From a virus, in the UHGV virus genome UHGV-0136738: DNA of 13,932 nucleotides; one strand, 5' to 3'. Position 1 is the stretch's first letter, and every line of letters starts with the position of its first letter. Of this stretch, positions 1 through 13,688 are shown piece after piece. Both the position numbers and the translations under genes were made by a program. The notes beneath the pieces were generated by a model that did no database searches, had not been told where the DNA came from, and was given only the letters and a program-made list of their open reading frames with translations.

Positions 1-186
1 AATACTTCGGGGGTTGTAGGCGTACATTTTAACCGTTCGAGAGGTAAATGGGTCGCCGTTATCTACGACAATCGTAAGCTCGTTTTCTTAGGGCACTTTT
101 CGGATTTCGAAGACGCTGTTGCCGTCAGGAAAGCGGCGGAAATAAGATATAATTACCACGAAAACCACGGATCAGAAAAACCATGA
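1..186 (+). CDS. HNH homing endonuclease, C-terminal AP2-type DNA-binding domain (5'-truncated by window edge)
   Basis: Frame 1 is open from base 1 to TGA at 184..186. Translation NTSGVVGVHFNRSRGKWVAVIYDNRKLVFLGHFSDFEDAVAVRKAAEIRYNYHENHG matches the AP2 pattern recalled from phage HNH endonucleases (G-V-x-[FW]-x-[RK]-x-x-GKW-x-A-x-I, then LG-x-F-x-x-x-E-x-A-x-x-[AR]-[KR]). The N-terminal HNH part lies outside the window. Confidence 0.65.
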   Translation, partial: NTSGVVGVHFNRSRGKWVAVIYDNRKLVFLGHFSDFEDAVAVRKAAEIRYNYHENHGSEKP

Positions 187-320
187 ACATCGTAGCCCCA
201 ATCCCCGCTTTACAGAAACGTATCAAGGAACTCGAAGAGGAAGTGTTAAGACTACGCCAGCAAAGAGACGCCGCTAACGCGCAACTGGCGTTTATACTGG
301 AGAAATTATCAGAAGAGTAG
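183..320 (+). CDS. hypothetical small protein (45 aa, predicted coiled-coil)
   Basis: ATG at 183 overlaps the upstream TGA as ATGA; stop TAG at 318..320. Translation MNIVAPIPALQKRIKELEEEVLRLRQQRDAANAQLAFILEKLSEE is heptad-like and charged. Below the 60-aa cutoff of the ORF track and followed directly by a terminator hairpin. Confidence 0.35.
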   Translation: MNIVAPIPALQKRIKELEEEVLRLRQQRDAANAQLAFILEKLSEE

Positions 321-324
321 AGAA

Positions 325-344
325 AAGGCCCCGTTTGGGGCCTT
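325..344. terminator. Rho-independent terminator hairpin, probably bidirectional
   Basis: Perfect 8-bp GC-rich stem aaggcccc / ggggcctt with loop gttt, followed by atgttttatg on the plus strand and by a T-run on the minus strand (complement of agagaaaa). Sits between the plus-strand ORF ending at 320 and the minus-strand tailspike gene ending at 350. Confidence 0.6.
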
Positions 345-349
345 ATGTT

Positions 350-2242
350 TTATGTCATACGGTAGTGCACCCAAGAAGATATAGCAACACCAACCGGAGT
401 TGGGCGTGTAACGTTTATATTGCTACCTGAAATATACGCTCTGTCAGCGCTAGCAGCGGAATCGTTGGCATACGCGGTGCATATATATGTCTCAGGACCC
501 TTATTAGATATAGTGACTGTCCCACTCCCTCCGCCGGATGCAATAGGAACCTCTATAATTCCGTCTGTATTAACACCGGTATTGCCGACGTAGGTATTCA
601 CCGCAGATTTAATAGCATCTGTTATTGACGTTAGCGTGTTATTACGTATAGTCAGATTGCCGCTAGATTGCAGGTAAAGCGCGGCCCCTAAGATACACCC
701 ACTAACTACACTCCCCGAGGTATTGCTGTAAAAAGCAATAGCGAAGGTATTAACGCCGCCACCAGTCGCTATAGTGCAATCCTTAATCGCCATCTTACCA
801 GCACCTGGCCCTATATTTATCCCGATGTTATTGTTGGTTGCATTTGAGTTCTCCGCGTTTATGTGGAGGCCTTGTAGCAGTTTATGCTGTTGCGCGGACG
901 ACATATTCGGGAACGTGACACCGAAGAATTGGTTAGTACCACTACCATCAGCGGCTATCCATGAGTTTACTAAGCTAAATCCACCATTTACGTTTTGAAC
1001 AACAACACCAGAATCCTGGCAATAATCCAGGTCCAAATTTGATAGATGGATATCGAGGCCGTCGTCGATGTACACCCCGTGTTGGAAGCGTATACACATC
1101 GTTTCGCCATTTACAATAATGGCTTCTGAGCGCACTGGGTTCGACCCATTCCACGTGTAGGTAGTTGGTTGAATACGAATGCCGAAACTATTAGAAACAG
1201 GGCCGCCGTCTCTACTAAAATGACAGCCACTAACCAATACACTGACACATTGGCCGAGTAAATGCAGCCCGATTCGACATGTACCCGCCTGACATGCTAT
1301 AAACTGGGAGTGCCACAAGCCTTGCATAAGATACGCCGTGTCTACCTCATTAACAGAAACGTGGTCAAACTTCCAACCGTACACTTGACGAATTACAGAG
1401 TCGGTAGAAGACAGATTAGTGTCAATACCGTTACATGAGTTATTGCCGGTGATTGATATGTCTTTTAAGTACCTGCCTATAGTATTTGAATCGTAGGCCA
1501 GGCGGAGTACCGCCCCCGTAAGAGTACTTTTTGCTCTAATTTGGGACCCTCTTCCATCCCCGCGGATATTAACTCCAGACGGAACCGTAACGGTGCTTCC
1601 GACATAGTAACCAACAGCATATTTACTAGCAGGTATGTAAACCTCCACACCATTAGGAAACGCCGCAGATACGGCATCGAAGCACGCCTGAAACGCGGCT
1701 GAGTTATCTGTGACCCCGTCGTCCACAACACCAAAATCAAGAACGCTTATGATGTCAGCGTTCTTTTCGTGCTGGCTTCTCGGTGACGAGTCGGTGATGT
1801 CCAGTTTAACCGCAACAAGGGCGTCCCCCATTAGTATGTCAGAGCTATCAGCCAAATTTTCCCGTAAATCCGGGTCAGTTTGCGGCTTCCAGTCGGCGCT
1901 GCCAACCGGATTAAAACTGGCAGGGACCACAACTGGCAGCGTACCAGCGTATGAGTACCACGTCTGGCTAACCGGGTCGTAAACCACTTTGTCGCGGTCA
2001 TTAACTGTCAACGTACCGCCGGTGGAAAAGTCCCATGACACCGGAGAAAAACCTGCGTCGCGTAACACCGCCGGAAGCGTCTTCTGTGTCTGGCCCGTAA
2101 CAGCGTTGGTCGCATAATCGATATCTGCACCGCCAGCGACGCCACCGGACTTACCAGTAATAACCTCGGCTTCAAAAATCTGGTGTTTCTTGGCGGTCTG
2201 TAAATCCGCCAGGCTTAAAACGTCACCACATCCGCTTGACAT
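350..2242 (-). CDS. tailspike / tail fibre protein with pectate-lyase-like right-handed beta-helix (putative polysaccharide depolymerase)
   Basis: 630-aa ORF with ATG at 2242 and SD AAGAGGA about 7 nt upstream. Residues about 165-190, ISVLDFGVVDDGVTDNSAAFQACFDAV, match the signature recalled for pectate-lyase-superfamily beta-helix tailspikes (DFGAxGDGxTDDTxAxQxA). The rest is rich in G/N/S/T-x-V/I repeats typical of beta-helix rungs. It is the last gene of the tail module. Confidence 0.8.
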   Translation of the reverse strand: MSSGCGDVLSLADLQTAKKHQIFEAEVITGKSGGVAGGADIDYATNAVTGQTQKTLPAVLRDAGFSPVSWDFSTGGTLTVNDRDKVVYDPVSQTWYSYAGTLPVVVPASFNPVGSADWKPQTDPDLRENLADSSDILMGDALVAVKLDITDSSPRSQHEKNADIISVLDFGVVDDGVTDNSAAFQACFDAVSAAFPNGVEVYIPASKYAVGYYVGSTVTVPSGVNIRGDGRGSQIRAKSTLTGAVLRLAYDSNTIGRYLKDISITGNNSCNGIDTNLSSTDSVIRQVYGWKFDHVSVNEVDTAYLMQGLWHSQFIACQAGTCRIGLHLLGQCVSVLVSGCHFSRDGGPVSNSFGIRIQPTTYTWNGSNPVRSEAIIVNGETMCIRFQHGVYIDDGLDIHLSNLDLDYCQDSGVVVQNVNGGFSLVNSWIAADGSGTNQFFGVTFPNMSSAQQHKLLQGLHINAENSNATNNNIGINIGPGAGKMAIKDCTIATGGGVNTFAIAFYSNTSGSVVSGCILGAALYLQSSGNLTIRNNTLTSITDAIKSAVNTYVGNTGVNTDGIIEVPIASGGGSGTVTISNKGPETYICTAYANDSAASADRAYISGSNINVTRPTPVGVAISSWVHYRMT

Positions 2243-2254
2243 ATAGAGTCCTCT

Positions 2255-4810
2255 TTAATAAAAACCGTTGCTGAATCCGTCGGAGAAACCGCGACCGAAA
2301 GGCGCGACGCCGTCGTATTTATAGAAACCTTCATCATAGTTGTAGCCCGTAATCTTAACCGTGCGGTCGTCGCCTGGGTCGATTGAAGAGACAACTATCC
2401 TCTGAGCATTATGCCTTGCTTCGTTGCCGAATGAAAACTCAGTTTTTAGTGCACTATTCCCGGTGTAAATGGCTTCCTCTGGTGCGGATAGCATAACCAC
2501 CTCGCGGTCGTGGCCTCCTTTGATAACAGAAATACTCTGTACCGAGCCGTCGCGCTTCTTGAGGATGATTGAGTGGTCGTCCCCTGGGGTGAACGTAACA
2601 GGCTGTGACAGAGTTAGCGTAAGCCCATTAACGGCAACAACATAACCATCCTGAGGCGCGATACGTGAACCTTTAACCACGCTGATTACACCACCCGGTG
2701 TAGCGAGTGCACCCTCTTCGGTAGCTTCGAACTCTACGACAACTTTACTTAACGCGTTGCGCTGGTAGCGACGCCACGCCAGCCAATATGCCTGCTGATA
2801 GTTACGTACGCCCTTCGATTCATATTCCTCGGTGTTTGCTCCGAGTTCTTCCGGGATATAAATCGTTTCCTGTACGTTAGTATCCGGGTCGATGTATGAG
2901 AACGACAGGCTATCATAGGTTGTCGAATCGTTGAACGTGCGCGTCCATTTCTCTGTACCAGTAGTTTTGCTGCGGTGAGTGAACACCATCTCAGGCCCTG
3001 CGACCGGGCGGTCGAAGCGCAGCATAATATCCGCACCTTTACGGTACGCAGTACAGAACACGGCTTCCGCTATGGTCTGAACGATGTCCTGCATGGTTGT
3101 GTCGTAATCGTCGAACGTGTAACAGAATTGCCCGGCTAACTCACTGCCGAAATAGGATTCAATCTCTTCCTGCACAGCGAGTAACTTGTCCATGTTTGCC
3201 GTCGTCAGTTGCAGATTGCCTACTGCGGGGTCGCGGGATAGTCTGATTAGCGACTGAACCGCCTGTGTATTAGGCGTCATTACTGTATCGAATACCCCAT
3301 TGCCGAGGTATTTGTAACACATCTCTGTCGCAATCATGCGTAGTTCCGGGTTGTCGATACTGGCGGCACGCGGCGTCTGTTTGCGGGCACAATGTACGGT
3401 AGTTCGGTTTCCGTAGTGCGGGGTGGTGTCCAGTGACTGACCGTACAGGTTGATGAATGTTATCTCGTCGCTTACCGTTCCGTCGTAGTCCTTATCGAAA
3501 TTCGTTATGCGGCGCATACGGGCGCGGAAACGGGACGCGGTCGGCAATTGCCCGTAAATAGATGTGCCAGCGTAATCGGTGCTATTGCCCGTAATTGTAG
3601 CCCGTACCGTGTAAATGTCGCTCAAAGGGTTGCGTTGAGAGTCAATCATCTGGTACTGGAGTTCTACGGTTACGCTGGTGCGGTTATATCCTCCGTCGTA
3701 TTTGTAGAGGCCGTTCTGCCCAGCTACGTTAACTAGCACACGGTCAACTTCTCCGCGTACCATGTAATACCAGTCGGTCAGGGATACATCATAGGTGTTG
3801 CTAGGGCCGATAAACGTATCTGAACGCTCTGTTAACGTGTACGTCTGCCCGCTAGTCAACGCCGCCCAGTTAGAAGCTCCGTTTACCGCTAATCTTACTT
3901 CGAAGTCGTCAACGTATAAAACCTCAAACGAGCCATTCAGGTTAGTGACATCAGCGACGTCAAAGTTGCTCAGCACCGCGACATCACCAACGCTAAGAAA
4001 TTCAGAAAAAGCAGAGTCACCTGACGGGTCATAGATGTAGCCGGTGTTTGAAATACGTTTAGCTGTACCGTCGGCGCTTGGGTTAGCTCCGATGTCGTTT
4101 GGCGCTTTCAGTACAATACCGTCAACGTCGTCGTTGGAGTATGTAACGTAGAGTTTCTGGTCAATGACGTCGCCGATTTGTAGTTGCGGTGAAGCGGTGT
4201 TGTTCGGAGAAGTATACGGCGCATACACGGCAACAGAGGAACCGGTGATGTCGCTTATCAGGGTGTCCCCCTCCGTGACACCATCAGCCTCGATATGCAG
4301 ATGCCCGCGACCAGCGTCATAGTATGAATACTCCAGCAAAGCACCAGTGGAGTTGAACGCTTTATACGTCTGCATCAGGTCGTTAGGGATTGTCTGCACA
4401 GTCCCGCAGATGTCGTAAGAGCGCTCGTACGGGCGAGGCTTGTTTGAGCGGTCTGTGAGGCTGTTATTCGGAGATGTTGTCTGGTTATTTGTTGCCGTGT
4501 AGTTGGCGTTAGCAGACATGTTAAGACCGAACAGTTTGGCGATAGGCTTGAGGATAAAGCCAAATACCTTACTAACCGCGCTAAGCGCGCCACTACCGGC
4601 GCCCTCAATAATATGGTAAACAGCTTCTTCATCTTTAAGTGCGTCGAAGTCGTCTGTTACGTCAGTATCATCGCCGATTTCACCGAGGTAGACGCGCACG
4701 GGCACACCGTCCGGGATACGGTTAACGACAAACTCCATCGGCATCCCGACGTGTTTTGTACGGTCGAAAGCGCCTTCAGCGTTTCGCGTGTAATGCAGGA
4801 TTATCGCCAA
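2255..4810 (-). CDS. large tail-tip / host-specificity protein (gpJ-like position), putative
   Basis: 851-aa ORF directly upstream of the tailspike and downstream of the NlpC/P60-like gene, the position held by the central fibre/host-specificity protein in lambda- and GTA-like tail modules. Start is ambiguous: TTG at 4810 with GGAG 8 nt upstream, or the first ATG at 4744. No catalytic motif recognised. Confidence 0.5.
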   Translation of the reverse strand: MAIILHYTRNAEGAFDRTKHVGMPMEFVVNRIPDGVPVRVYLGEIGDDTDVTDDFDALKDEEAVYHIIEGAGSGALSAVSKVFGFILKPIAKLFGLNMSANANYTATNNQTTSPNNSLTDRSNKPRPYERSYDICGTVQTIPNDLMQTYKAFNSTGALLEYSYYDAGRGHLHIEADGVTEGDTLISDITGSSVAVYAPYTSPNNTASPQLQIGDVIDQKLYVTYSNDDVDGIVLKAPNDIGANPSADGTAKRISNTGYIYDPSGDSAFSEFLSVGDVAVLSNFDVADVTNLNGSFEVLYVDDFEVRLAVNGASNWAALTSGQTYTLTERSDTFIGPSNTYDVSLTDWYYMVRGEVDRVLVNVAGQNGLYKYDGGYNRTSVTVELQYQMIDSQRNPLSDIYTVRATITGNSTDYAGTSIYGQLPTASRFRARMRRITNFDKDYDGTVSDEITFINLYGQSLDTTPHYGNRTTVHCARKQTPRAASIDNPELRMIATEMCYKYLGNGVFDTVMTPNTQAVQSLIRLSRDPAVGNLQLTTANMDKLLAVQEEIESYFGSELAGQFCYTFDDYDTTMQDIVQTIAEAVFCTAYRKGADIMLRFDRPVAGPEMVFTHRSKTTGTEKWTRTFNDSTTYDSLSFSYIDPDTNVQETIYIPEELGANTEEYESKGVRNYQQAYWLAWRRYQRNALSKVVVEFEATEEGALATPGGVISVVKGSRIAPQDGYVVAVNGLTLTLSQPVTFTPGDDHSIILKKRDGSVQSISVIKGGHDREVVMLSAPEEAIYTGNSALKTEFSFGNEARHNAQRIVVSSIDPGDDRTVKITGYNYDEGFYKYDGVAPFGRGFSDGFSNGFY

Positions 4811-5166
4811 AATTCAATCTCCGTGTACGTGTCTCTGAGGTCCGAAAGGCGGTCAAGACGCACCTGACGCGACGCCATCTCGCAATGACTTACCATACCA
4901 TCGAAATATACCCCTGCGTGCCACACGATACGCCCGCTACGACGATACCCGAGTAGCACAGCGCACATGTTTTCAGGCTTATCAATCTTCGTTAACCCTT
5001 TTGGGTCACTGTGGCCCTGCTCGAATGCTGCGTCTATCGCTGTTGGGCTGGTTACGTCGAAAGCGGGGGTTTCAAGCCCTGCGTCTGCGCGAACCATGCG
5101 GACATGCTGCCAGCAATTACGCTTACGGAAATCATACGGCAGCCCGGTATAATAGTTGATATTCAT
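4801..5166 (-). CDS. NlpC/P60-like small tail protein (gpK / GTA g14-like position), putative
   Basis: 121-aa ORF whose ATG overlaps the upstream stop as ATGA. It has a Cys near the N-terminus (RNCWQHV) and a downstream His-containing segment (VWHAGVYFDGMVSHC) resembling the Cys/His pattern of NlpC/P60 papain-like domains. Position matches the small peptidase gene of GTA-like tail tips. Confidence 0.45.
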   Translation of the reverse strand: MNINYYTGLPYDFRKRNCWQHVRMVRADAGLETPAFDVTSPTAIDAAFEQGHSDPKGLTKIDKPENMCAVLLGYRRSGRIVWHAGVYFDGMVSHCEMASRQVRLDRLSDLRDTYTEIEFWR

Positions 5167-5678
5167 GTTGTCAGAAGACCGCGAAGTAGTGGTATCTCTT
5201 TAGGTGTCATCAGTATACCAGTGCTTCGTTGGTTCAGCATAGGTGTACCTACATCCGCGGAGAACTCGCCCTTCTCCTGGTTGATTGCCTGCAACTCATA
5301 CACTACCGGACCATCTGCGGGGTACGACAGGTCGGTGCTGACGTAGCGCCGGGAGATGAACTTCGGCGACTCGGTATTACTCATCGGAATTTTGTCCATC
5401 TCATCATCCAGTTGATTGAGGATATCCGGGAGAGTAAACGTCGTCGTCTGGTCCATATCACTGTTGTTAGCAGCCCCCGACGCTTCCATCGGGGTAGGTT
5501 CAAACGTAATTGTTTCACCTGTCTCCAGTGTTGCCGTTAGTTCCTGTAGCCCGCGCACGAGATAATACGTCTTTGACAGCAACGGGTGGCTGATTTGCAG
5601 CGTGATGTAGTCCATTTCGCCGTCTGGGTTAGAGGCCAACTTACGGCGATAGGCTGCTTCTACTGATTCCTGGCTCAT
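5163..5678 (-). CDS. tail-tip protein, function unknown
   Basis: 171-aa ORF packed between the 466-aa and 121-aa tail genes with a 3-nt gap upstream and a 4-nt overlap downstream. Acidic protein; assignment is by synteny only. Confidence 0.45.
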   Translation of the reverse strand: MSQESVEAAYRRKLASNPDGEMDYITLQISHPLLSKTYYLVRGLQELTATLETGETITFEPTPMEASGAANNSDMDQTTTFTLPDILNQLDDEMDKIPMSNTESPKFISRRYVSTDLSYPADGPVVYELQAINQEKGEFSADVGTPMLNQRSTGILMTPKEIPLLRGLLTT

Positions 5679-5681
5679 AAG

Positions 5682-7082
5682 TTAACCGTCCACATTAAAG
5701 TCGATACGAGTGATATATTTACTACCCCACGCGGAGTCCGCCTGCGGGATAATGGCGTAGTTATCTACGGCGGGTACGTTTACGGTAGACCCATCGGAAT
5801 AGGTAATGTCGATACTTGTCGCGCCGTTCATGGTTACTTTTGCGGATGCCGTGGTCCGGGTCACAGATGAAGAACCAGTTACTATCGGGGACGTGGCATG
5901 GCCTGATGGTTCCATTTGTATCAACGCGATATTGAACCCGCTGACACCATCCCCCGTGAAGGTGAGGGAGTTAGACGACGACAACATGTTTATCTGCGAA
6001 TAAATCAATCCGCCAGAGTCGTTAGTGTCCGCGGACATTGAAACGTGATACCACCCACCACCGAGATTACTTACAAACGACCTTGAGGTGTCGCCTGATA
6101 TCAAATCACCAGAGGCTAAGTCAACATAGGCATACTGGAAATTATCTAAAGCGGCTGGGTTGCCGATGGTTACCGCTGCTGACTGGTACTCATCTGCTTT
6201 CATAATAGCACTAATAGAGTATCTTGTTTCTTGTTCTGGGGCCTCTGGCTGGTTTATATAGTGGCTCCCTGATACCGACGTTGCGGCTAATTTAGCGGCG
6301 TAAGTTTCTTGGAATAACATCAAAGAACTCGCCGTGGTTGTTGTTCTGGTGCGTGAAAATGATGTAGATAGTAAGTTGTTAGAGTGTTCTACCACGTTGG
6401 TTGAAGCGCTTTCCGGCGGCACACGCCCAACAGCAACCCCATCGATAAACGTAAGGGGCCATTCATCGGCAGCGGACGGCACAAGATTGCCGTTTCGGTT
6501 GATGTAGTAAACCTGCGGCCCGTCATACACAATGCGGTTATCTAGTGTAGACGCCAGAAGGTTAATCGGTGGATAACCCGCGGGACCTTCGTTACTCCAG
6601 ATGCGGGGGAACGTAGTTTCGTAGTTCGCGTATATCTTAAGGAAACTGCCCAGACAGTCGCCGTAGCAACCATACAAATCCGGCAGATTGTTAATCAGGC
6701 ACTGGTTCTCAAGGTCCTGGAACGGCGATTTCTCAGCGGTTGCCGTGAAAGTAATCGTCCAGTTAATGCCATCTTCGGTGGACTCCGCGATGGTTGACGT
6801 AATGGTTACCTGGTAATCCTCGATACCCATGCCGAAGTCGTGCGCCATCCAGAAACTGGACGCGCCGCCGTCTACTTTCTCAAGAAACGCGAGGAAAGTC
6901 TGTCGTCCAAGCGCGGAGGTGATAAGCGTCACACTGACAGGGAACACGTCATAATAGGTGTCACGCCCCTGACGGACGCCACCACCCGCTAAATCAACAC
7001 TCCAGACGTTGTTACGTCTGGTCATCGAGTAGCCTTTCGACACAATAGGCTTAAGGCTACGTGGAAAAAATAAGTCACCCAT
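5682..7082 (-). CDS. minor tail protein (distal tail protein position), putative
   Basis: 466-aa ORF whose ATG at 7082..7080 overlaps the TMP stop codon as TAATG, indicating translational coupling. It is the first gene after the tape measure, where the distal tail or minor tail protein usually sits. Confidence 0.5.
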   Translation of the reverse strand: MGDLFFPRSLKPIVSKGYSMTRRNNVWSVDLAGGGVRQGRDTYYDVFPVSVTLITSALGRQTFLAFLEKVDGGASSFWMAHDFGMGIEDYQVTITSTIAESTEDGINWTITFTATAEKSPFQDLENQCLINNLPDLYGCYGDCLGSFLKIYANYETTFPRIWSNEGPAGYPPINLLASTLDNRIVYDGPQVYYINRNGNLVPSAADEWPLTFIDGVAVGRVPPESASTNVVEHSNNLLSTSFSRTRTTTTASSLMLFQETYAAKLAATSVSGSHYINQPEAPEQETRYSISAIMKADEYQSAAVTIGNPAALDNFQYAYVDLASGDLISGDTSRSFVSNLGGGWYHVSMSADTNDSGGLIYSQINMLSSSNSLTFTGDGVSGFNIALIQMEPSGHATSPIVTGSSSVTRTTASAKVTMNGATSIDITYSDGSTVNVPAVDNYAIIPQADSAWGSKYITRIDFNVDG

Positions 7083-9355
7083 TATTTGAACCCCGGCGCG
7101 TTTCTTGTGGCCTTGCGGGCCTTGCTAATCTTACTGTTACTGTTCTGCAAAGAGGCGGCGACCTGTTCCTCGATGATGATGCGCAGACGCCCTTCATCAT
7201 CCTGCTCGGTGGACACGTTGCCGATTTGCGAACTCGTGTTGTTTACGATGGTAACATTAGATGGGCCGGAAGAAGACCCGTTTTGGCCCATAATCTCTTT
7301 CATTTGTTGCGCGGTGCGTACTCGCGACGCCCCCGCGGGCATAATTACCTCAGGTTTACCGCGTTCGGCGATGGTGGAAGCCTGCCCCGCGGATAACTGG
7401 CCCCCCTGTTCACGCGCGGACCTGATAGCGGAAACCTGCGCCATACCGGCCCCAACAGCAGCGGCAGCGGCTACTGGTGCAAGGAATGGCCCAACAACCG
7501 GGATAGCAGCTGTTGACTTATACGCTTCAATAGCTGCAGTATACGTAGCGATAGTGGCCTGCACAATCGCGAACGCCTTATAAGCGCCGGATGCTTCACC
7601 TAACGCGGATCCAATGTTAGAAGCCATGTTACCAAAAGCTGTTGCCGTTGCGTCAGCACGCTTGGTTGCGTACTGCTCGTTGATGGCGCTAAGCGCAGCC
7701 TGATATTGCTTCTCGCTAATAAGACCTTGTTCTCGGTACTTATCGGCTACCGCCAGTTTCTGCTGTTCCTGAATATCCAGAAGCTCAAGCTCGGTGGCGT
7801 TCTGGCCCATAATCTGAGCCATGAAATCCTCACCTTTCTGTTGCTTATCCTGGGCTTCTTTCTGGCGTTTATCCAGTTCATCCTGCCGTTTTTGCCCTGC
7901 TTCAAGAACAATGGCGGTTTTAGCCTGTTCGTACTCTTTTAACGATAGCGCACCCTGACTGTAGAACTCTTTTGCTTTAGCCAGTTTCTGCTGCTCCTGG
8001 GCGTCAATAGCCTTTAACTCGTCATTGTTCTGACGGGCCAAAGTGTCGAGGTAATCTTGTGCCTGATTACGCAATTGTTCTGCTTTCTTAGCGGCTGCTT
8101 TTGCTGCTTTATCGTCGGTTTTCCCCGTCCCACCAGTCCCGCCTTTTTTATCAACAAGGCTGGCTAAGTCGATTTCTTGCTTCTTGCGCTCGTCATACTG
8201 CTTGCGCTGTTCCTCAATTTCTTTCTTACGCTGCTTAGACCTGTCGGTAATGGCCTGGGACTCCGCCTCTGCGCGTTTTATGCTGGCGGCATATGCGGCG
8301 TCGGCCTCCGCAGTCAGGTTTTTAAATGTGAGCGCTGCCGTTTTGCTCGGGTCAAACACGTCAGCAAGAGTCTGGCCTAACGCTACGGCATAATCATCAA
8401 TGCGCTGAAACCATGCAATAACCTCGTGGAATGTCTGCTGAATGTCAGGCAACCACTCACGGATAGCGTCAGGGATTGTGCCAAGCGAATCTGACATGTT
8501 CGCCGATTTGTCTTCTGTGTCGTACGCCAAATCATTCAAGGCGTCAGAAATAAACTTGAACGACTCATTGAACAGCGTCGCCCAATCCTGGAGTGTGGAT
8601 GCTATCTCATTAGACGCAATGGCATCGGTGAGCGCAGTTACTGCGTCTTCGGCCGCCGCGGCTTGCTCACCTACGGCGTCGCCAAAACCAGACTGCGCTA
8701 CCGCAAGAACAAGACCGTCAAATGAGTCAGCAAGGCTCGACAACTGCCCGTCAAGGGTCTTCGAGCGCGTCTCCATCGCTCCGGCGAAATCAGTATTGCC
8801 GATGTTTAGCAGGTATTTCTGAATCTCTTCGGAGTTCTTCTTGACCGTGGTCGTTACGCCACGGAACGTGAACGAAACTGTGTCCGCCTGTTGGGAAGAC
8901 TTGATGCCGAACTCTTTTAAGCGCTCGAATTCAAATGTACTGGCGTCAGCAACTGCCTCAATCATCTGGTTAAGGTCTTTACCCATCGCAGCCGCAGTGT
9001 TGCCGTAGGAGATTAACGCCTCTTTGCTGGGGTTAAGCCCGAGCGCCACGAGCTTGGTAAATCCCTCTACAGCCTGGTTAAGCCCGTATGGTGTTTCTTT
9101 AGCAAACTGTTGCAGGACGCTGAAAGCCTTTGCCGCGTTCTCGGCGCTTCCGGTCATTGTGATGAGTCCGGAGTTCAGCTTATCGAAGTTGCGCTGAGAG
9201 TCCACCAGCGCGCTGAACACCTGTTTAGCGGTTTCCAGACTGACAACGGCAGCTGCCGCCGCCCCCGCCGCCTTGGTAAGCCCGTTCAGTTGAGATGTTG
9301 TTTTATCGACGCCGGTCGAAGATACTCGTACTATCAAACTAGCGGTATCAGCCAT
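7082..9355 (-). CDS. tail tape measure protein
   Basis: Long ORF, 757 aa from ATG at 9355 (AAGGT SD about 8 nt upstream; the ORF track extends to TTG at 9370). Ala-rich N-terminus, a long charged coiled-coil centre with two internal repeats (residues about 449-484 and 526-560), a hydrophobic Ala/Gly/Val-rich segment near residues 595-650, and location directly after two chaperone ORFs. Confidence 0.85.
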   Translation of the reverse strand: MADTASLIVRVSSTGVDKTTSQLNGLTKAAGAAAAAVVSLETAKQVFSALVDSQRNFDKLNSGLITMTGSAENAAKAFSVLQQFAKETPYGLNQAVEGFTKLVALGLNPSKEALISYGNTAAAMGKDLNQMIEAVADASTFEFERLKEFGIKSSQQADTVSFTFRGVTTTVKKNSEEIQKYLLNIGNTDFAGAMETRSKTLDGQLSSLADSFDGLVLAVAQSGFGDAVGEQAAAAEDAVTALTDAIASNEIASTLQDWATLFNESFKFISDALNDLAYDTEDKSANMSDSLGTIPDAIREWLPDIQQTFHEVIAWFQRIDDYAVALGQTLADVFDPSKTAALTFKNLTAEADAAYAASIKRAEAESQAITDRSKQRKKEIEEQRKQYDERKKQEIDLASLVDKKGGTGGTGKTDDKAAKAAAKKAEQLRNQAQDYLDTLARQNNDELKAIDAQEQQKLAKAKEFYSQGALSLKEYEQAKTAIVLEAGQKRQDELDKRQKEAQDKQQKGEDFMAQIMGQNATELELLDIQEQQKLAVADKYREQGLISEKQYQAALSAINEQYATKRADATATAFGNMASNIGSALGEASGAYKAFAIVQATIATYTAAIEAYKSTAAIPVVGPFLAPVAAAAAVGAGMAQVSAIRSAREQGGQLSAGQASTIAERGKPEVIMPAGASRVRTAQQMKEIMGQNGSSSGPSNVTIVNNTSSQIGNVSTEQDDEGRLRIIIEEQVAASLQNSNSKISKARKATRNAPGFK
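7691..8026 (-). repeat. internal duplication within the tape measure gene
   Basis: Peptides ELKAIDAQEQQKLAKAKEFYSQGALSLKEYEQAK and ELELLDIQEQQKLAVADKYREQGLISEKQYQAAL lie 76 codons apart. Their DNA cores gccagtttctgctgctcctg (7980..7999) and gccagtttctgctgttcctg (7752..7771) are 19/20 identical. Confidence 0.6.
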
Positions 9356-9680
9356 GATTTCTACCTTCAAAGATTGCTTCTAGGCCCATGATAATGTCTA
9401 TCTCAAACAGGCTAAGCTGTTTCTGTGTGACGTCGAGATAGGCTTTCAGGTCTTGCCACGTTACGGATTCTCTTGCAAACAATACTACCGCGTCATCGCG
9501 CACGTGTCGCGTAAACTTAATGTCGCAATACGTTTCAAAGGTGGATATGAAAAGGGGCGGGCATTCTGGCCCACCCCGTCGCGCTGCACGTTTTTTCTTA
9601 TCGATTACACCCATTGCGATAAGCGCCTGTTCGTGACCGTCGGCTATAGAATCAAATTCTCTGATTTTATGCTTATCCAC
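9348..9680 (-). CDS. tail assembly chaperone, T-like distal ORF (possibly made as a G-T fusion by -1 frameshift)
   Basis: 110-aa ORF from GTG at 9680 with no convincing SD. The same frame is open upstream to 9731 and overlaps the end of the 139-aa ORF in the -1 frame. Its TGA at 9350..9348 lies just inside the TMP start (ATGGCTGA). Confidence 0.5.
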   Translation of the reverse strand: MDKHKIREFDSIADGHEQALIAMGVIDKKKRAARRGGPECPPLFISTFETYCDIKFTRHVRDDAVVLFARESVTWQDLKAYLDVTQKQLSLFEIDIIMGLEAIFEGRNHG

Positions 9681-9712
9681 GAACTCATAGGTGGCGAACC
9701 TGTACAGCGCGT

Positions 9713-10132
9713 CTACTTTTCCTGCAATGCTTTACGCTCAGCATTATGGAACGCTGCCACCTGAGTACCAAGCCCCTTGAACTGGTCTAGAAGCTTATTA
9801 AACGCCTCTTTGGAGAACGGTTCATCATCAAAGCTCCAGCCGTTGACGACTTCCGCAGCGAGTTGGCGGTTCAGGTCTTCTGCCAGTTCATTAATCGCCA
9901 GGTTATATTCAGTATAGTCGCCGGATTCTTTGGCGGCTTTTTCGAGTTCTTCAAAACGTGCAAGCCCGCGACGGTACGCAATAATGAAAGCGCGACCCGC
10001 TTTAACGGCGACATCGGCATCAGGGCTTACTACGTTAAGCCACTCCCCCGAGTCTTCACCGTTCGGCAGGAGAATCGGCATCTTCTTGCCTACCATCGCT
10101 TTCTCTTCAAAATAAAAATCAGAAAGTTTCAT
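9713..10132 (-). CDS. tail assembly chaperone (G-like)
   Basis: 139-aa acidic ORF immediately upstream of the T-like ORF and the tape measure gene. ATG at 10132 has SD AAAGGA about 8 nt upstream. Confidence 0.6.
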   Translation of the reverse strand: MKLSDFYFEEKAMVGKKMPILLPNGEDSGEWLNVVSPDADVAVKAGRAFIIAYRRGLARFEELEKAAKESGDYTEYNLAINELAEDLNRQLAAEVVNGWSFDDEPFSKEAFNKLLDQFKGLGTQVAAFHNAERKALQEK

Positions 10133-10239
10133 TCTTTAATCCTTTGGTTAAGAGGTTACTGGTTAAAGGAAATGCGCCAGACGGGAACCACCCGCTTTTC
10201 GTGTGCGACACTAGGCGCAAAATTATTCTAACACACTAC

Positions 10240-10268
10240 TTGCACACCCCAATATAATAGCGTACTAT
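10240..10268 (+). promoter_or_regulatory. candidate sigma70-like promoter for the plus-strand cassette
   Basis: TTGCAC (10240..10245), 17-bp spacer, TACTAT (10263..10268), about 30 nt upstream of ATG 10300. A perfect TATAAT at 10253..10258 overlaps but lacks a properly spaced -35. Weak matches only. Confidence 0.2.
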
Positions 10269-10299
10269 TCACTTACACCAACAATGAAGGGGTTTTAAA

Positions 10300-10491
10300 A
10301 TGTCCAGTTTACCAATTTCCTTAATCCTGTTTGCACTGCTCGCGTACTTTGCGCCTTTTTTAGTCGCCTATTTCCGTAACCATAAAGCAAAGCTGGCGAT
10401 ATTTATGGCTAACTTATTTCTCGGGTGGGTTCTGTTGCCGTGGGTATTCATTTTAATCTGGGCTTGCAACTCGAACGTGAAAGAGAAGTAG
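10300..10491 (+). CDS. small membrane protein resembling the superinfection-immunity (Imm_superinfect) family
   Basis: 63-aa ORF with SD GAAGGGG 7 nt upstream of ATG. Two predicted transmembrane helices. Sequence YFAPFLVAYFRNHKAKLAIFMANLFLGWVLLPWVFILIWAC fits the pattern recalled for that family (YF-P, A-x-R-x-H, IF-x-NL-x-LGW, W, LIWA). Confidence 0.5.
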   Translation: MSSLPISLILFALLAYFAPFLVAYFRNHKAKLAIFMANLFLGWVLLPWVFILIWACNSNVKEK

Positions 10492-10529
10492 GCTACTATA
10501 AGACAAATCCTAAACACGAGGAAGTAAGC

Positions 10530-11270
10530 ATGGCCCAGAAGAAAATAACCGACGAGCAGTTACAGGAAGAATTGAACGCCGGGGTGAAGAACGTAGATAT
10601 CGCCCGTAAATACGGCATCTCAGACCGCGTTATCCGAATCCGTAAAGCGAAGCTGGCTAAGAAAGGCGTAGGCCACGGGCGTGACGTAAGCCACCTTGTA
10701 CCAGACGGCTACAAGATTAAGGGTACGTCGTCTCTGGTGGACGAGTTCGGTAACACTAAGTTGCAGTGGGTTAAGACAGACACCGATGCCGAACGTCAGG
10801 TTGAGTTGATGAAAGCCGTAGTCGAAGGCATGAAGTCGGAGATTACTCCCGTTCCGCCAGTTAAGGCCGCCCGGGCTAAACGTGACGACAAGCTGCTTAA
10901 CCTGTACACCGTGTCTGATTTCCATCTCGGTATGTTAGCCTGGGCTGACGAGAGCGGCGACGACTGGGATATGAAAATCGCGGAGGACTTATTTTCACGA
11001 TGGTTTGATGCCGCGTTTCAGAAAGCACCGGATGCAGGTACGGGGGTTATTAATCTTCTTGGCGACTTAGCGCACTTCGATAGTCTTGATGCCGTTACAC
11101 CAGCAAGCGGTCATGTCCTTGACGCCGACACGCGTTACCAGAAACTTGTTCGCTATATGATTCGCATGGTACGCCGTGTTGTCGATATGGCACTGGTTAA
11201 ACATAAAACTGTTCGCTTGCTTATCGTGCAAGGGAACCACGACGAATCCGGGATGATTTGGCTGGCGTAG
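10530..11270 (+). CDS. HTH domain fused to N-terminal half of a calcineurin-like (SbcD/Mre11-type) metallophosphoesterase, ending at an in-frame TAG
   Basis: ATG at 10530 with strong SD GAGGAAG 5 nt upstream; the ORF-track GTG at 10425 overlaps the preceding gene. Residues about 17-42 (GVKNVDIARKYGISDRVIRIRKAKLA) look like a helix-turn-helix. Phosphoesterase motifs I (VSDFHLG), II (GDLAHFD) and III (GNHDE) follow. TAG at 11268..11270. Confidence 0.7.
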   Translation: MAQKKITDEQLQEELNAGVKNVDIARKYGISDRVIRIRKAKLAKKGVGHGRDVSHLVPDGYKIKGTSSLVDEFGNTKLQWVKTDTDAERQVELMKAVVEGMKSEITPVPPVKAARAKRDDKLLNLYTVSDFHLGMLAWADESGDDWDMKIAEDLFSRWFDAAFQKAPDAGTGVINLLGDLAHFDSLDAVTPASGHVLDADTRYQKLVRYMIRMVRRVVDMALVKHKTVRLLIVQGNHDESGMIWLA

Positions 11271-11660
11271 ATGTTCAGCACACTGTACGACAACGAGCCT
11301 CGTGTGTTCGTCGATACGTCGCCGGATGTGTATAAGATGGTGCAACACGGCAAAACGACGCTGTTCTTTCATCACGGGCATAAGGCACGCTTCGACGCAA
11401 TCGAGCCTGTTATGATTGCCAAGTTCCGCAAAGCGTTCGGCGAGAGCGTCTACAGCTACGCGCATGTAGGCCACCTCCACCACCAGAAGATTGTCGAAAG
11501 CCGTAACATGATTGTCGAACAACACCGCACCTTAGCCGCTAAAGACGCATACGCCTCCCGTGGCGGATGGATGTCAGGCCGCGGGGCAAATGTAATTACT
11601 TATAGCGCAGAATATGGCGAGGTCGCACGTTTAACTATTTCACCGGAGATGCTGGGATGA
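11271..11660 (+). CDS. C-terminal half of the same metallophosphoesterase (motifs IV-VI), same frame as the upstream ORF
   Basis: ATG at 11271 directly follows the TAG and is in the same frame (11271 minus 10425 is divisible by 3). Contains FFHHGH and AHVGHLHH, matching the downstream His and GHxH motifs of the fold. Ends with ATGA overlap into the next ORF. Confidence 0.65.
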   Translation: MFSTLYDNEPRVFVDTSPDVYKMVQHGKTTLFFHHGHKARFDAIEPVMIAKFRKAFGESVYSYAHVGHLHHQKIVESRNMIVEQHRTLAAKDAYASRGGWMSGRGANVITYSAEYGEVARLTISPEMLG

Positions 11661-11887
11661 CTTCAAAATACGACAGAACTATGACAAATATACACGGCAG
11701 CACGATGACTGTTGATGTCTATGATGTCCTCCGCGCTTTCGACATCCGAGACCCGGCGCTGCAGCACGCATTGAAAAAGTTGCTGTGTATGGGTCTACGC
11801 GGGCACAAAGACACAGGCACGGACTTAGAAGAGGCAATAGAAAGTCTGGAGAAGTTACGAGAGTACCGGAGTAATATTGATGAGTGA
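11657..11887 (+). CDS. hypothetical protein (76 aa)
   Basis: ORF whose start overlaps the upstream stop as ATGA, consistent with translational coupling inside the cassette. No motif recognised. Confidence 0.45.
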   Translation: MTSKYDRTMTNIHGSTMTVDVYDVLRAFDIRDPALQHALKKLLCMGLRGHKDTGTDLEEAIESLEKLREYRSNIDE

Positions 11888-11894
11888 AAGTATT

Positions 11895-12056
11895 ATGAAA
11901 ACAATATATGTAATCAGAATATACGATGAAGAATGGGATGAGTGGGTAGACATTTACGCCGTTGGAAGTAAGGAAGAGGCGTCAAAAGAAATGACAGAAA
12001 GAAGTGACCGAGGCCAGTTAACTAACTTCTATGAAATGCCATTCAAAAGTGAATAA
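11895..12056 (+). CDS. hypothetical small protein (53 aa), AT-rich
   Basis: ATG 11895 to TAA 12054..12056, translation MKTIYVIRIYDEEWDEWVDIYAVGSKEEASKEMTERSDRGQLTNFYEMPFKSE. Uses A/T-rich codons (ata, aga, aaa) unlike neighbouring genes and has a weak SD. Ends 4 nt before the terminator hairpin. Confidence 0.3.
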   Translation: MKTIYVIRIYDEEWDEWVDIYAVGSKEEASKEMTERSDRGQLTNFYEMPFKSE

Positions 12057-12060
12057 GAAA

Positions 12061-12080
12061 AAGGCCCCTTTCGGGGCCTT
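12061..12080. terminator. Rho-independent terminator hairpin, probably bidirectional
   Basis: Perfect 8-bp stem aaggcccc / ggggcctt with loop tttc, followed by agttttatg on the plus strand and preceded by gaaaaa (a T-run for the minus strand). Lies between the plus-strand cassette and the minus-strand major tail gene ending at 12085. Confidence 0.65.
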
Positions 12081-12084
12081 AGTT

Positions 12085-13269
12085 TTATGCGTAGGTGATA
12101 CGCTGAATAACGATAGACGACTGATATTGGTTGCCCGTAGCCTGGCCTTCAATAGACTGAGTGATAGACTCTGGGCCGCCAATCTCTGGTGTAACTGCGG
12201 TCAACTCCGCACGTTTCAAACTGAAAGACATAGCCCCGTTTACCCCCGCCAGAATAGAGTTAATCTCTACCTGTTGCTCGTTGATAAACTTCTGAATCAT
12301 AGCCATGTCGTACAGTTTGCCCGCGATGGAAAAGGTGTTAGCCGCACGGCCTCGTTCAACGAACGCTACGTTACTGTTGCCGAGTTCGAACTGGGCGGAA
12401 GCACCGTTATCGTTGGTGATGGTCAGCGTGTCGCAACGCAACGGCGACGTACCATCGAACACTGACACATCTACAGATGAGAACGGCTCATCGGTAAACG
12501 TCACCTGAGAGAAATCAGAGCCAGCCGGAGGTGCAGTAAGAATCTCCTGGCTCAGGCCGATGAACGGGAAGCTGCCGGTTACCATCGCGTTAACCGCCTG
12601 CTCGATAGTGAAGCCGGAAATCTCAACTCCTTTGGTAAGCATGTACGCGTCAGGGTTTCCGCACTGGCCTTTGAACCAGGTCAGGATAGAGAACGTTTTA
12701 CACGCGTTACCGGTTTCCAGCTTGTCGCCGGTTTCCAGCTTGTCGCCGGTTTTAGCGTCAGTCGTTACAGTTTCTGTGGTAAGCGTGTGCTGAATACCTG
12801 CGCCTGTTACGACAAGAGCGGAAACTTCGGTAACGATGAATGGCTTCGCGTTATCGCCTGTCAGACCGGTGAACGCGATAAGGTCGCCAACTTCAACGCC
12901 GTCGGTAATGAAGCTACCGGTTGCGCGGGTGAACGTTTTACCAACCGGCGCAACCGTAATTTCCGCGCCAGTAATCTCGACGCCAGCCTGCCACGTAGAT
13001 GTCATCGCACCTGCGAGGAAATCATCCTGACTTTTTGAGCTAAGCTCGATGGCGTATTCCCCGGTTACCTGTTTGTTACCTGTGCGGATAGACGTGGTTT
13101 CACGGCTGCCGTCCAGTTCGTTTGACGTCAGTGCGTCACGTGTTACCGCGGGAACACCGCCAGTATTGCGCAACGGCGACCATACCGGGGAAGTCGGTGT
13201 TACGCCCGGGGTAGTTTCCGCCACATAGAATTGCGCGGTATTCGCGCCCTTAAAAGGAGTTGTAGCCAT
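12085..13269 (-). CDS. major tail (tube) protein, putative
   Basis: About 394 aa from ATG at 13269 (SD AGAGG 8 nt upstream; the ORF track starts at GTG 13275). Ser/Thr/Gly/Val-rich beta-type composition. Lies after a tail-terminator-like gene, is followed by a terminator, and precedes the chaperone/TMP genes. Confidence 0.5.
   Translation of the reverse strand: MATTPFKGANTAQFYVAETTPGVTPTSPVWSPLRNTGGVPAVTRDALTSNELDGSRETTSIRTGNKQVTGEYAIELSSKSQDDFLAGAMTSTWQAGVEITGAEITVAPVGKTFTRATGSFITDGVEVGDLIAFTGLTGDNAKPFIVTEVSALVVTGAGIQHTLTTETVTTDAKTGDKLETGDKLETGNACKTFSILTWFKGQCGNPDAYMLTKGVEISGFTIEQAVNAMVTGSFPFIGLSQEILTAPPAGSDFSQVTFTDEPFSSVDVSVFDGTSPLRCDTLTITNDNGASAQFELGNSNVAFVERGRAANTFSIAGKLYDMAMIQKFINEQQVEINSILAGVNGAMSFSLKRAELTAVTPEIGGPESITQSIEGQATGNQYQSSIVIQRITYA
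12710..12753 (-). repeat. perfect 18-bp tandem duplication inside the major tail gene
   Basis: Plus-strand unit ggtttccagcttgtcgcc occurs twice in tandem (12712..12729 and 12730..12747), followed by a partial third copy ggtttt. It encodes the in-frame peptide repeat TGDKLETGDKLETG. Confidence 0.9.
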
Positions 13270-13271
13270 AT

Positions 13272-13688
13272 TCACAGCCTCTTGGTGAATGCAATAAAGT
13301 TAATCGACAATGGTCTTTTGGCCCATCCATTTTCTACAATCAGCGGCCCCAGGCTAACCGATTGCACTTCGGCGCAGATGTCGTTACGTGAAAATGACTT
13401 ACCTGCTTTGAATGCCGTGTTAAGTAAGTCTGCCATTTTATTGATTGGCGCGCTACCTTTCACCGATGCGTAGTTAATGTCTACCTGATAAACACCGGCG
13501 CGTTGCTCGGTGAAGAATAAGTCGGCCTGCTCTGTATCCGCCAGCAGCATGTAGCTAGCCAGATACGGCGTATCAGTTGACGTTGGGGCGTCGATATTTT
13601 CAAGCGCAACTTTGATGCCGTTGGTGTTTCCGAAGGCTACCAGCGGCACGTCAAACGCTTTTGTTAAATCCTCAAAGTAGCCCATCAT
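13272..13688 (-). CDS. tail terminator / tail completion protein-like, putative
   Basis: 138-aa ORF with SD AAGGTG just upstream of tandem ATG codons; its stop lies 2 nt before the major tail gene ATG. Size and position match a tail terminator; no motif recognised. Confidence 0.4.
   Translation of the reverse strand: MMGYFEDLTKAFDVPLVAFGNTNGIKVALENIDAPTSTDTPYLASYMLLADTEQADLFFTEQRAGVYQVDINYASVKGSAPINKMADLLNTAFKAGKSFSRNDICAEVQSVSLGPLIVENGWAKRPLSINFIAFTKRL

Follow-up and report, generated by a model that had tools for sequence, protein, structure and literature searches.

Two near-identical 20-nt hairpins lie in a 13,932-nt stretch of the virus genome UHGV-0136738 (the window, by which we mean the whole stretch that was analysed), each in the short gap between two convergent genes, one behind the tailspike gene and the other behind the tail tube gene. 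We read them as bidirectional Rho-independent terminators, predicted from their structure and position, that represent a reused module of ~35 nt standing at the boundaries of swapped gene cassettes, and we put the probability of this reading at roughly 0.8. As an element the module is ordinary, and its modest interest comes from its evolutionary behaviour rather than from its function. Megablast identified the window as Kagunavirus DNA (Guernseyvirinae, K1G-like siphophages of E. coli), with NRG857CP3, K1G, the K1ind phages and Bas74 aligning at ~87-90% identity across ~80% of its length. Both hairpins were found where an earlier note on this DNA had placed them (325-344 and 12061-12080), and each sits in a module that runs from one stop codon to the other:

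318..352, module 1, stop to stop: TAG-AGAAAA-hairpin-ATGTT-TTA
325..344, hairpin 1: AAGGCCCC GTTT GGGGCCTT, then ATGTTTTATG; loop AAAC when read along the tailspike gene
12054..12087, module 2, stop to stop: TAA-GAAAAA-hairpin-TTAGTT-TTA
12061..12080, hairpin 2: AAGGCCCC TTTC GGGGCCTT, then AGTTTTATG; loop GAAA when read along the tail tube gene

The 8-bp stems AAGGCCCC/GGGGCCTT of the two hairpins agree at all 16 of 16 bases and the loops are not the same (GTTT versus TTTC). A repeat search of the window aligned the two sites over 28 nt without gaps at 86% identity. The pattern AAGGCCCC-N4-GGGGCCTT, with up to three mismatches allowed, occurred exactly twice in the window, compared with a mean of 0.06 matches in shuffled windows, only 1 in 200 of which reached two. 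Each stem is perfect, contains six G-C pairs and closes a 4-nt loop, giving an isolated hairpin of ~-15.5 kcal/mol; the energies for the 56-nt contexts of the hairpins are -15.5 to -19 kcal/mol (z-scores -2.7 to -3.8).

Together with its short A- and T-rich arms, each hairpin essentially occupies the 28-29-nt gap between two convergent stop codons, which at both sites lie 4-5 nt from the ends of the stem. The plus-strand stops are the TAG at 318-320 and the TAA at 12054-12056, and the minus-strand stops lie at 350-352 and 12085-12087; the first and last triplets of module 2 are themselves the stop codons of both convergent genes. These positions agree with the earlier description of each hairpin as standing shortly after a minus-strand structural gene and facing a small convergent open reading frame (ORF) on the plus strand. 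The likeness of the "TTTTATG" tails is partly forced, because in both copies the TTA that they contain is the TAA stop codon of the minus-strand gene, read as its reverse complement.

The features of both sites correspond to those of intrinsic terminators acting in two directions. The stem is G+C-rich and its length and loop fall within the usual ranges (~5-14 bp and 3-8 nt) with a stable fold, a U-tract follows directly 3' of the stem, and a stop codon stands just upstream at the end of a transcription unit, as it does in 111 related copies. The hairpin is moreover symmetric, preceded by an A-tract, followed by a T-tract and placed between convergent genes, which is the arrangement of a bidirectional terminator. 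In the late direction the stem runs into GGGGCC-UUUUUCUUA after the tail tube gene (site 2) and GGGGCC-UUUUCUCUA after the tailspike gene (site 1); the U-runs in the plus direction, UUAGUUUUA and UUAUGUUUUA, are interrupted and hence weaker. A terminator consensus scan called site 2 in both orientations and, for site 1, the plus strand only. The proposal of the earlier note that these are bidirectional intrinsic-terminator-type hairpins at convergent junctions is further borne out by Salmonella phage vB_SenS-Ent1 (Ent1, HE775250), in which the orthologous sites after the major tail and tailspike genes are annotated as paired plus- and minus-strand rho-independent terminators, as are two more convergent junctions. 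The kind of element was therefore already known in this phage group.

On this reading, RNA made in the late direction would fold the GC-rich 8-bp hairpin and then reach the U-run UUUUUCUUA or UUUUCUCUA, and RNA made in the opposite direction would fold the same palindromic stem, followed by UUAGUUUUA or UUAUGUUUUA. On the minus strand, hairpin 2 would close the tail-tube block and hairpin 1 the block that ends in the tailspike gene; for plus-strand transcription the corresponding units would be the accessory cassette (hairpin 2) and the helicase-side block (hairpin 1). Antisense entry of polymerases into the facing genes would be prevented by each hairpin as well. The working unit of ~35 nt would thus be made up of a stop codon, an A-rich arm, GGCCCC, a loop, GGGGCC, a T-rich arm and a second stop codon.

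Several points weigh against this reading. The plus-direction U-run is interrupted (UUAGUUUUA), and the consensus scan gave no call for the minus direction of hairpin 1. The stem is invariant in the collected copies and so offers no covariation support for an RNA structure, and the large copy set was gathered by patterns that demand this very stem. Identical stems do not prove common descent, because unrelated phages commonly carry the 20-nt core. In a gap of only 28 nt, any breakpoint lies almost inevitably on the hairpin, so the coincidence of a hairpin with a mosaic boundary is no proof that the hairpin causes recombination. A literature search found no transcript 3'-end mapping for this phage group, the sole Kagunavirus RNA-seq study found giving gene-level values; termination is thus what we infer from structure, position and annotation. 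When earlier descriptions of the module were sought in the literature, only routine ARNold terminator counts in Kagunavirus genome papers were found, and an Rfam scan of the window gave no covariance-model match at either hairpin, its only match being int-alpA at 10157-10221.

The mosaic boundaries themselves are plain. BLAST of the window against 11 relatives placed breakpoints at both hairpins in nearly every relative compared, which bears out the suggestion that the copies might mark such boundaries. At hairpin 1 the match ends at window positions 344-354 in 8 of the 11 relatives and restarts only at 1863-2079 in all 11. At hairpin 2 a long match begins at 12050-12061 in 9 of the 11, the previous match having ended at 11660 or at 11885-11887; the last genes of the plus-strand cassette therefore vary. 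The boundary at hairpin 1 concerns two parts of the tailspike gene:

~355-1862, minus strand: receptor-binding part of the tailspike, an Sf6-like endorhamnosidase
~1863-2242, minus strand: N-terminal anchor of the tailspike, conserved

The receptor-binding part had no nucleotide match in 50,697 phage records and is ~50% identical to the Sf6 endorhamnosidase tailspike at the protein level. Among the 111 non-redundant related copies, dozens of distinct tailspike gene ends lead into one common sequence, ...TAAAACTAA-GGCCCC-loop-GGGGCC-TTTTCTCTA. Being conserved at the ends of gene blocks, the short module forms the distal border of exchangeable cassettes, here the receptor-binding domain of the tailspike and the last part of the accessory cassette, and it probably also acts as a crossover point. 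Import of the terminator together with the Sf6-like receptor-binding domain was considered and rejected: the hairpin after the Sf6 tailspike gene is a different one (GGGGCC ATAT GGCCCC).

The gene order on either side of hairpin 2 bears on a further claim, that the hairpins follow the two most abundant tail components and that hairpin 2 also sets the stoichiometry of major tail protein to tape measure protein. The tail tube fits the first part of this description, but for the tailspike, an Sf6-like endorhamnosidase, nothing indicates a high copy number, and the claim is unsupported there. The second part does not fit the gene map, in which the tail tube gene (12085-13275) is not adjacent to the chaperone and tape-measure genes (7082-10132). 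The rival explanation built on it holds that hairpin 2 is a partial attenuator whose read-through fraction fixes the tube-to-tape-measure protein ratio. It is well established for phages in general that terminators behind major structural genes can set expression ratios. The last gene before the hairpin is indeed that of the tail tube, with the tape-measure block further downstream on the same strand, and the hairpin after the capsid gene in relatives looks like such a ratio-setting terminator. We nevertheless consider an attenuator at hairpin 2 quite unlikely. A 1.8-kb cassette of opposite-strand genes with its own conserved promoter module (10240-10275) separates the tail tube and tape-measure blocks, so read-through past hairpin 2 would be antisense, would collide with the cassette's transcription and would not lead directly to the tape-measure genes. 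The chaperone gene has an intergenic region of its own upstream, the late-direction U-run UUUUUCUUA is the stronger of the two and suggests a full stop, and the same module follows the tailspike gene, where convergent plus-strand genes come next. Hairpin 2 is more plausibly a full stop for two converging units, with the chaperone and tape-measure block starting from its own 166-nt upstream region.

The terminator reading also holds that the two sites are copies of one module. The stem GGCCCC-N3-5-GGGGCC with A/T arms was present in 2-5 copies in each of 9 out of 9 complete Guernseyvirinae genomes, mostly at convergent junctions, so that what had been proposed as a reused terminator module of about 30 bp extends across the subfamily at ~30-37 bp. 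Copies stand at the ends of the portal, Ig-like head-decoration, tail tube and tailspike genes and also inside the accessory cassette, and in Ivi three of four convergent junctions carry the GGCCCC/GGGGCC stem. Perfect-stem terminators of all kinds number ~5-10 per genome in a scan of the relatives; the unidirectional ones, for example after the capsid gene, have their own site-specific stems that are conserved across genera. The arms of the module come in distinguishable variants (TAAAACTAA versus TAAGAAAAA).

The bare 20-nt core, AAGGCCCC-N4-GGGGCCTT, has exact matches at at least 120 loci of IMG/VR; the contigs concerned span 30-67% G+C and come mostly from unrelated phages. As the bare core is not diagnostic, copies were then sought with arm-specific patterns. 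The wide occurrence of the core speaks for independent convergence, in which A(n)-GGCCCC-tetraloop-GGGGCC-T(n) would simply be a favoured terminator design, and the sites neither copies of one module nor involved in recombination; it is in line with this that the window copies differ in loop and arm details and that the loops of the two sites do not match within any one genome. Convergence nonetheless seems unlikely to us, because the likeness reaches lineage-specific arms such as TAAAACTAA, which are common to the tail-tube and tailspike sites of the same genomes, and because the other terminators of those genomes retain different stems across genera. The arms also reassort around the stem, and 45-54 nt that include non-functional flank are shared with phage Bas81 and with a P22-like prophage. 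The extended arm TAAAACTAAGGCCCC is, judging by its distribution, specific to this lineage: its 81 IMG/VR loci lie nearly all on 40-45-kb contigs, often 2-3 per contig.

Short, palindromic, intergenic and multi-copy as it is, the module might recall a host-derived repeat that landed in a phage genome, either like the repetitive extragenic palindromic (REP) sequences and bacterial interspersed mosaic elements (BIMEs) or like miniature inverted-repeat transposable elements (MITEs). A generic host element of the REP type was one outcome that the earlier note had named as fatal to its own proposal. A scan with the arm pattern of one genome from each of 185,579 bacterial and archaeal species gave two matches, one of them Jerseyvirus-like DNA, and BLAST of the 40-nt module, which detects only the TTTC or GAAA loop forms, matched 1 of 5,426 complete E. 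coli genomes, within a P22-like prophage. This is not the distribution of a REP, BIME or MITE family; the host-repeat explanation is already largely refuted, and we give it next to no credence. The Jerseyvirus-like match is a 13-kb contig labelled Taishania pollutisoli (L132, NZ_JACVEL010000023.1), on which two copies of the module lie and the flanking tail tube and DNA-binding genes are of Jerseyvirus type; most likely phage DNA contaminated the bacterial assembly.

Within the lineage the module has been rearranged in ways that leave the stem intact. The arm types (TAA)AACTAA and (TAA)GAAAAA occur around it in all four combinations, and the Jerseyvirus tail-tube module is the Kagunavirus module inverted relative to the genes. 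Module 2 (34 nt) is accordingly 100% identical to Salmonella phage skrot in inverted orientation, next to a tail tube gene that is ~70% identical; the match falls on the "wrong" strand because the Jerseyvirus module is inverted. The arm combinations and the inversion fit what crossovers within or beside the palindrome would produce.

At one site, between the same asymmetric flanks, the loops of the module form exact reverse-complement pairs (GAAA/TTTC, AAAC/GTTT, GGAA/TTCC, GAAC/GTTC and ATGAC/GTCAT). A flipped loop was found in 22 locus pairs whose 150-nt flanks are 91-100% identical, so that hairpin loops flip faster than their surroundings diverge in sequence. An unrelated low-GC phage accounts for one pair: the IMG/VR contigs L117 and L037 (37% G+C) have flanks that are 98.7% identical and the same core hairpin, with the loop TTAC in one and GTAA in the other. 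Loop flipping is therefore not peculiar to Guernseyvirinae. Assembly error is an unlikely cause, because the asymmetric flanks let any read across the 20-nt hairpin fix the orientation of the loop. The flips look as template switching at perfect inverted repeats, a known mutational process (PMC8794818), would make them, and we take this as the probable mechanism. In the related copies there was no sign of concerted evolution of loops between the two sites within one genome.

Loop flips and arm reassortment show the palindrome to be recombinationally or replicatively active, which speaks for an element that works at the DNA level, as a cruciform or as a site for a protein such as a phage nuclease, homing endonuclease or recombinase, with recombination as its job and termination incidental. 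Homing endonuclease, exonuclease and SSB genes are found in these phages, and the window itself has an AP2-type endonuclease-like ORF end at 1-186. Such an element is very improbable in our view. Every copy lies directly after a stop codon and has A- and T-tracts, the signature of a terminator, and no candidate binding protein was identified. The flips are independent of protein, since template switching at any perfect inverted repeat suffices (PMC8794818), and they are also seen in the unrelated pair L117/L037.

Exchange of the tailspike cassette extends beyond the subfamily. Bas81, which belongs to a different siphophage group, shares 1,854 nt at 81.6% identity with the Kagunavirus Bas74, and the shared segment comprises the module and the receptor-binding domain. 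The match starts just past the stop codon of the Bas81 SSB gene and ends short of the N-terminal anchor, so that both the SSB gene and the anchor lie outside it; ~16 nt in the Bas81 copy resemble the 3' end of the Kagunavirus small ORF. Because Bas81 and Bas74 share terminator and receptor-binding domain, the two have moved between phage groups as one cassette. The match across module 1 covers 51-54 nt in Bas81 and in a P22-like E. coli prophage, and the SSB end with the module is also present in the siphophages Bas77-81 (46-48 kb) and Bas82 (58.5 kb). In the prophage of E. coli NZ_OW968111.1 (L223, 5896-6030) a frameshifted 3' fragment of the SSB gene and the module, together 93% identical to Bas81, are placed between intS and an unrelated tailspike gene, a locus that looks like the scar of a tailspike-cassette exchange between phage families. 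When the tailspikes of the window, Bas81 and the prophage were compared, no protein similarity was found; only the module and its upstream flank are shared.

While the odds are against it, a stronger role for the module can be proposed tentatively. It may be a portable recombination joint of ~35-50 nt that travels with receptor-binding cassettes and recruits them, forming the 3' counterpart of the N-terminal anchor, with the palindrome as a hotspot for loop flips and crossovers. Such a joint would span at least three lineages, namely Guernseyvirinae, the Bas77-82 siphophage group and the P22-like prophage, which we regard as no less tentative. If this were true, the module would help to drive host-range switching.

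The gene order of the window, derived from the ORF list and annotated relatives, is as follows:

183..320, plus strand: small conserved ORF of 45 aa, downstream of the helicase block and converging on the tailspike gene, stop 4 nt before hairpin 1 (Bas74_0033, ECPH5_54)
350..2242, minus strand: tailspike gene, 630 aa, stop 5 nt from hairpin 1
2255-7082, minus strand: tail tip and minor tail genes
7082-9370, minus strand: tape measure gene
9348-10132, minus strand: chaperone genes
10240..10275, plus strand: sigma-70-type promoter-like module (TTGCAC, 17-nt spacer, TACTAT) with an AATAG..CTATT palindrome, a putative promoter
10300-12056, plus strand: accessory cassette with a superinfection-immunity gene, a phosphoesterase/exonuclease gene and three small ORFs
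11877..12056, plus strand: last small ORF of the accessory cassette, 59 aa, stop 4 nt before hairpin 2
12085..13275, minus strand: tail tube (major tail) gene, 396 aa, with orthologues annotated as tail tube or major tail protein

The late head-neck-tail-tube block ends with the tail tube gene, whose stop lies 4 nt from hairpin 2; past this gene in window order come, likewise on the minus strand, the gene for the tail terminator protein and the neck genes. An 18-nt exact tandem duplication (CCGGTTTCCAGCTTGTCG x2) lies within the tail tube gene at 12710-12745, in frame, and adds six codons. The last small ORF of the accessory cassette has an Ivi homologue, annotated ECPH5_40, and the end of the cassette is variable among relatives. 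The promoter-like module heads the plus-strand cassette that hairpin 2 ends; it is present in 2-3 copies per related genome at 89-97% identity, each ahead of a gene block, and resembles the PHIRE consensus reported for phage fBC-Eco01.

Three further parts of the window deserve mention. The int-alpA RNA match (RF02996, minus strand) covers the full model with a marginal score of 36.6 bits against a gathering score of 35.8; it lies in the 5' region of the tail chaperone and tape-measure operon and recurs at the orthologous site of NRG857CP3, and no match was found in Ivi or Ent1. A structured leader ahead of the tail operon could be interesting, marginal as this score is. Within the second tail-chaperone reading frame, upstream of the tape-measure gene, a 9-bp GC hairpin at 9554-9577 on the minus strand (GGGGTGGGC CAGAAT GCCCGCCCC, then TTTTCATATC; -22.6 kcal/mol) is conserved in Kagunaviruses and degenerate in Jerseyviruses, and could be either an internal attenuator or a mere coding constraint. 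The 466-aa ORF at 5682-7082 on the minus strand, between the tape-measure and minor tail genes, matches relatives only in part, with BLAST gaps at ~5678-6597, and its equivalents comprise 166 aa in K1G and 466 aa in Bas74; it is a further variable slot of the tail module.

At the other end of the window, the C-terminal end of an ORF at 1-186 (plus strand, frame 1) reads ...GVHFNRSRGKWVAVIYDNRKLVFLGHFSDFEDAVAVRKAAEIRY... and had no nucleotide match in the phage collection, being absent at the same position in relatives. It looks like the AP2-type DNA-binding domain of HNH homing endonucleases, and is probably the end of an inserted homing-endonuclease gene.

As terminators the two sites matter little, because orthologous sites were already predicted in genome records of the 2012 era. 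What the module offers is a precise and conserved 3' boundary for tailspike receptor-binding cassettes, and this in phages that are being widely isolated for therapeutic use against E. coli K1 and Salmonella. This boundary is a natural design point for host-range engineering, in which the segment from the N-terminal anchor to the terminator module is swapped.

The annotated terminators of Ent1 are one of the closest known systems. They share the positions, the stem AAGGCCCC/GGGGCCTT and the A-tract and T-tract flanks with the hairpins described here, and are annotated as putative on both strands, being predictions as well rather than experimental results. They differ in that the asymmetric arms of the tail-tube site are oppositely oriented to the genes, and in their loops and plus-strand neighbours.

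A second likeness is to morons, self-contained accessory cassettes in phage late regions, which Juhala et al. reportedly described in 2000. The unit at 10240-12080 likewise has a promoter-like module, accessory genes and a terminator, and is embedded between tail genes, and the superinfection-immunity gene of the cassette is labelled "moron" in the Bas74 record. It differs from a moron in having several genes, in running opposite to the late genes and in sharing its terminator with the late operon.

The loop flips recall the hairpin-loop inversion by intrastrand template switching, a mutation of the quasipalindrome type, that was described for rRNA hairpins (Monttinen and Loytynoja 2022, PMC8794818). 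Here too the loop is swapped for its exact reverse complement and stem and flanks stay unchanged. The hairpins in the present case are terminators in phage DNA and have flipped repeatedly at the same sites, probably by the same mechanism.

In the way it behaves between genes, the module most resembles the promoter-early stem-loops (PeSLs) of T4-type phages, conserved terminator stem-loop cassettes that are repeated within each genome (Arbiol et al. 2010, PMC2839356; Comeau et al. 2014, PMC4122927). PeSLs lie at the borders of inserted, deleted or replaced genes and have been proposed as exchange points between otherwise unrelated sequences (PMC2839356, PMC4122927). Like them, the module described here occurs in several copies per genome at the borders of gene replacements and indels. 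A PeSL, however, joins a strong sigma-70-like promoter to the stem-loop, whereas no promoter adjoins the module here, the repeated promoter-like module being a separate element 1.8 kb from the hairpin. PeSLs also cluster among same-strand genes in hyperplastic regions, and the copies here are mostly at convergent junctions; of mini-circles there is no evidence in this system. With PeSL-like behaviour and without the promoter half, the module is not a member of the PeSL family; it is a further example, outside T4-like phages, of repeated regulatory sequences at module borders.

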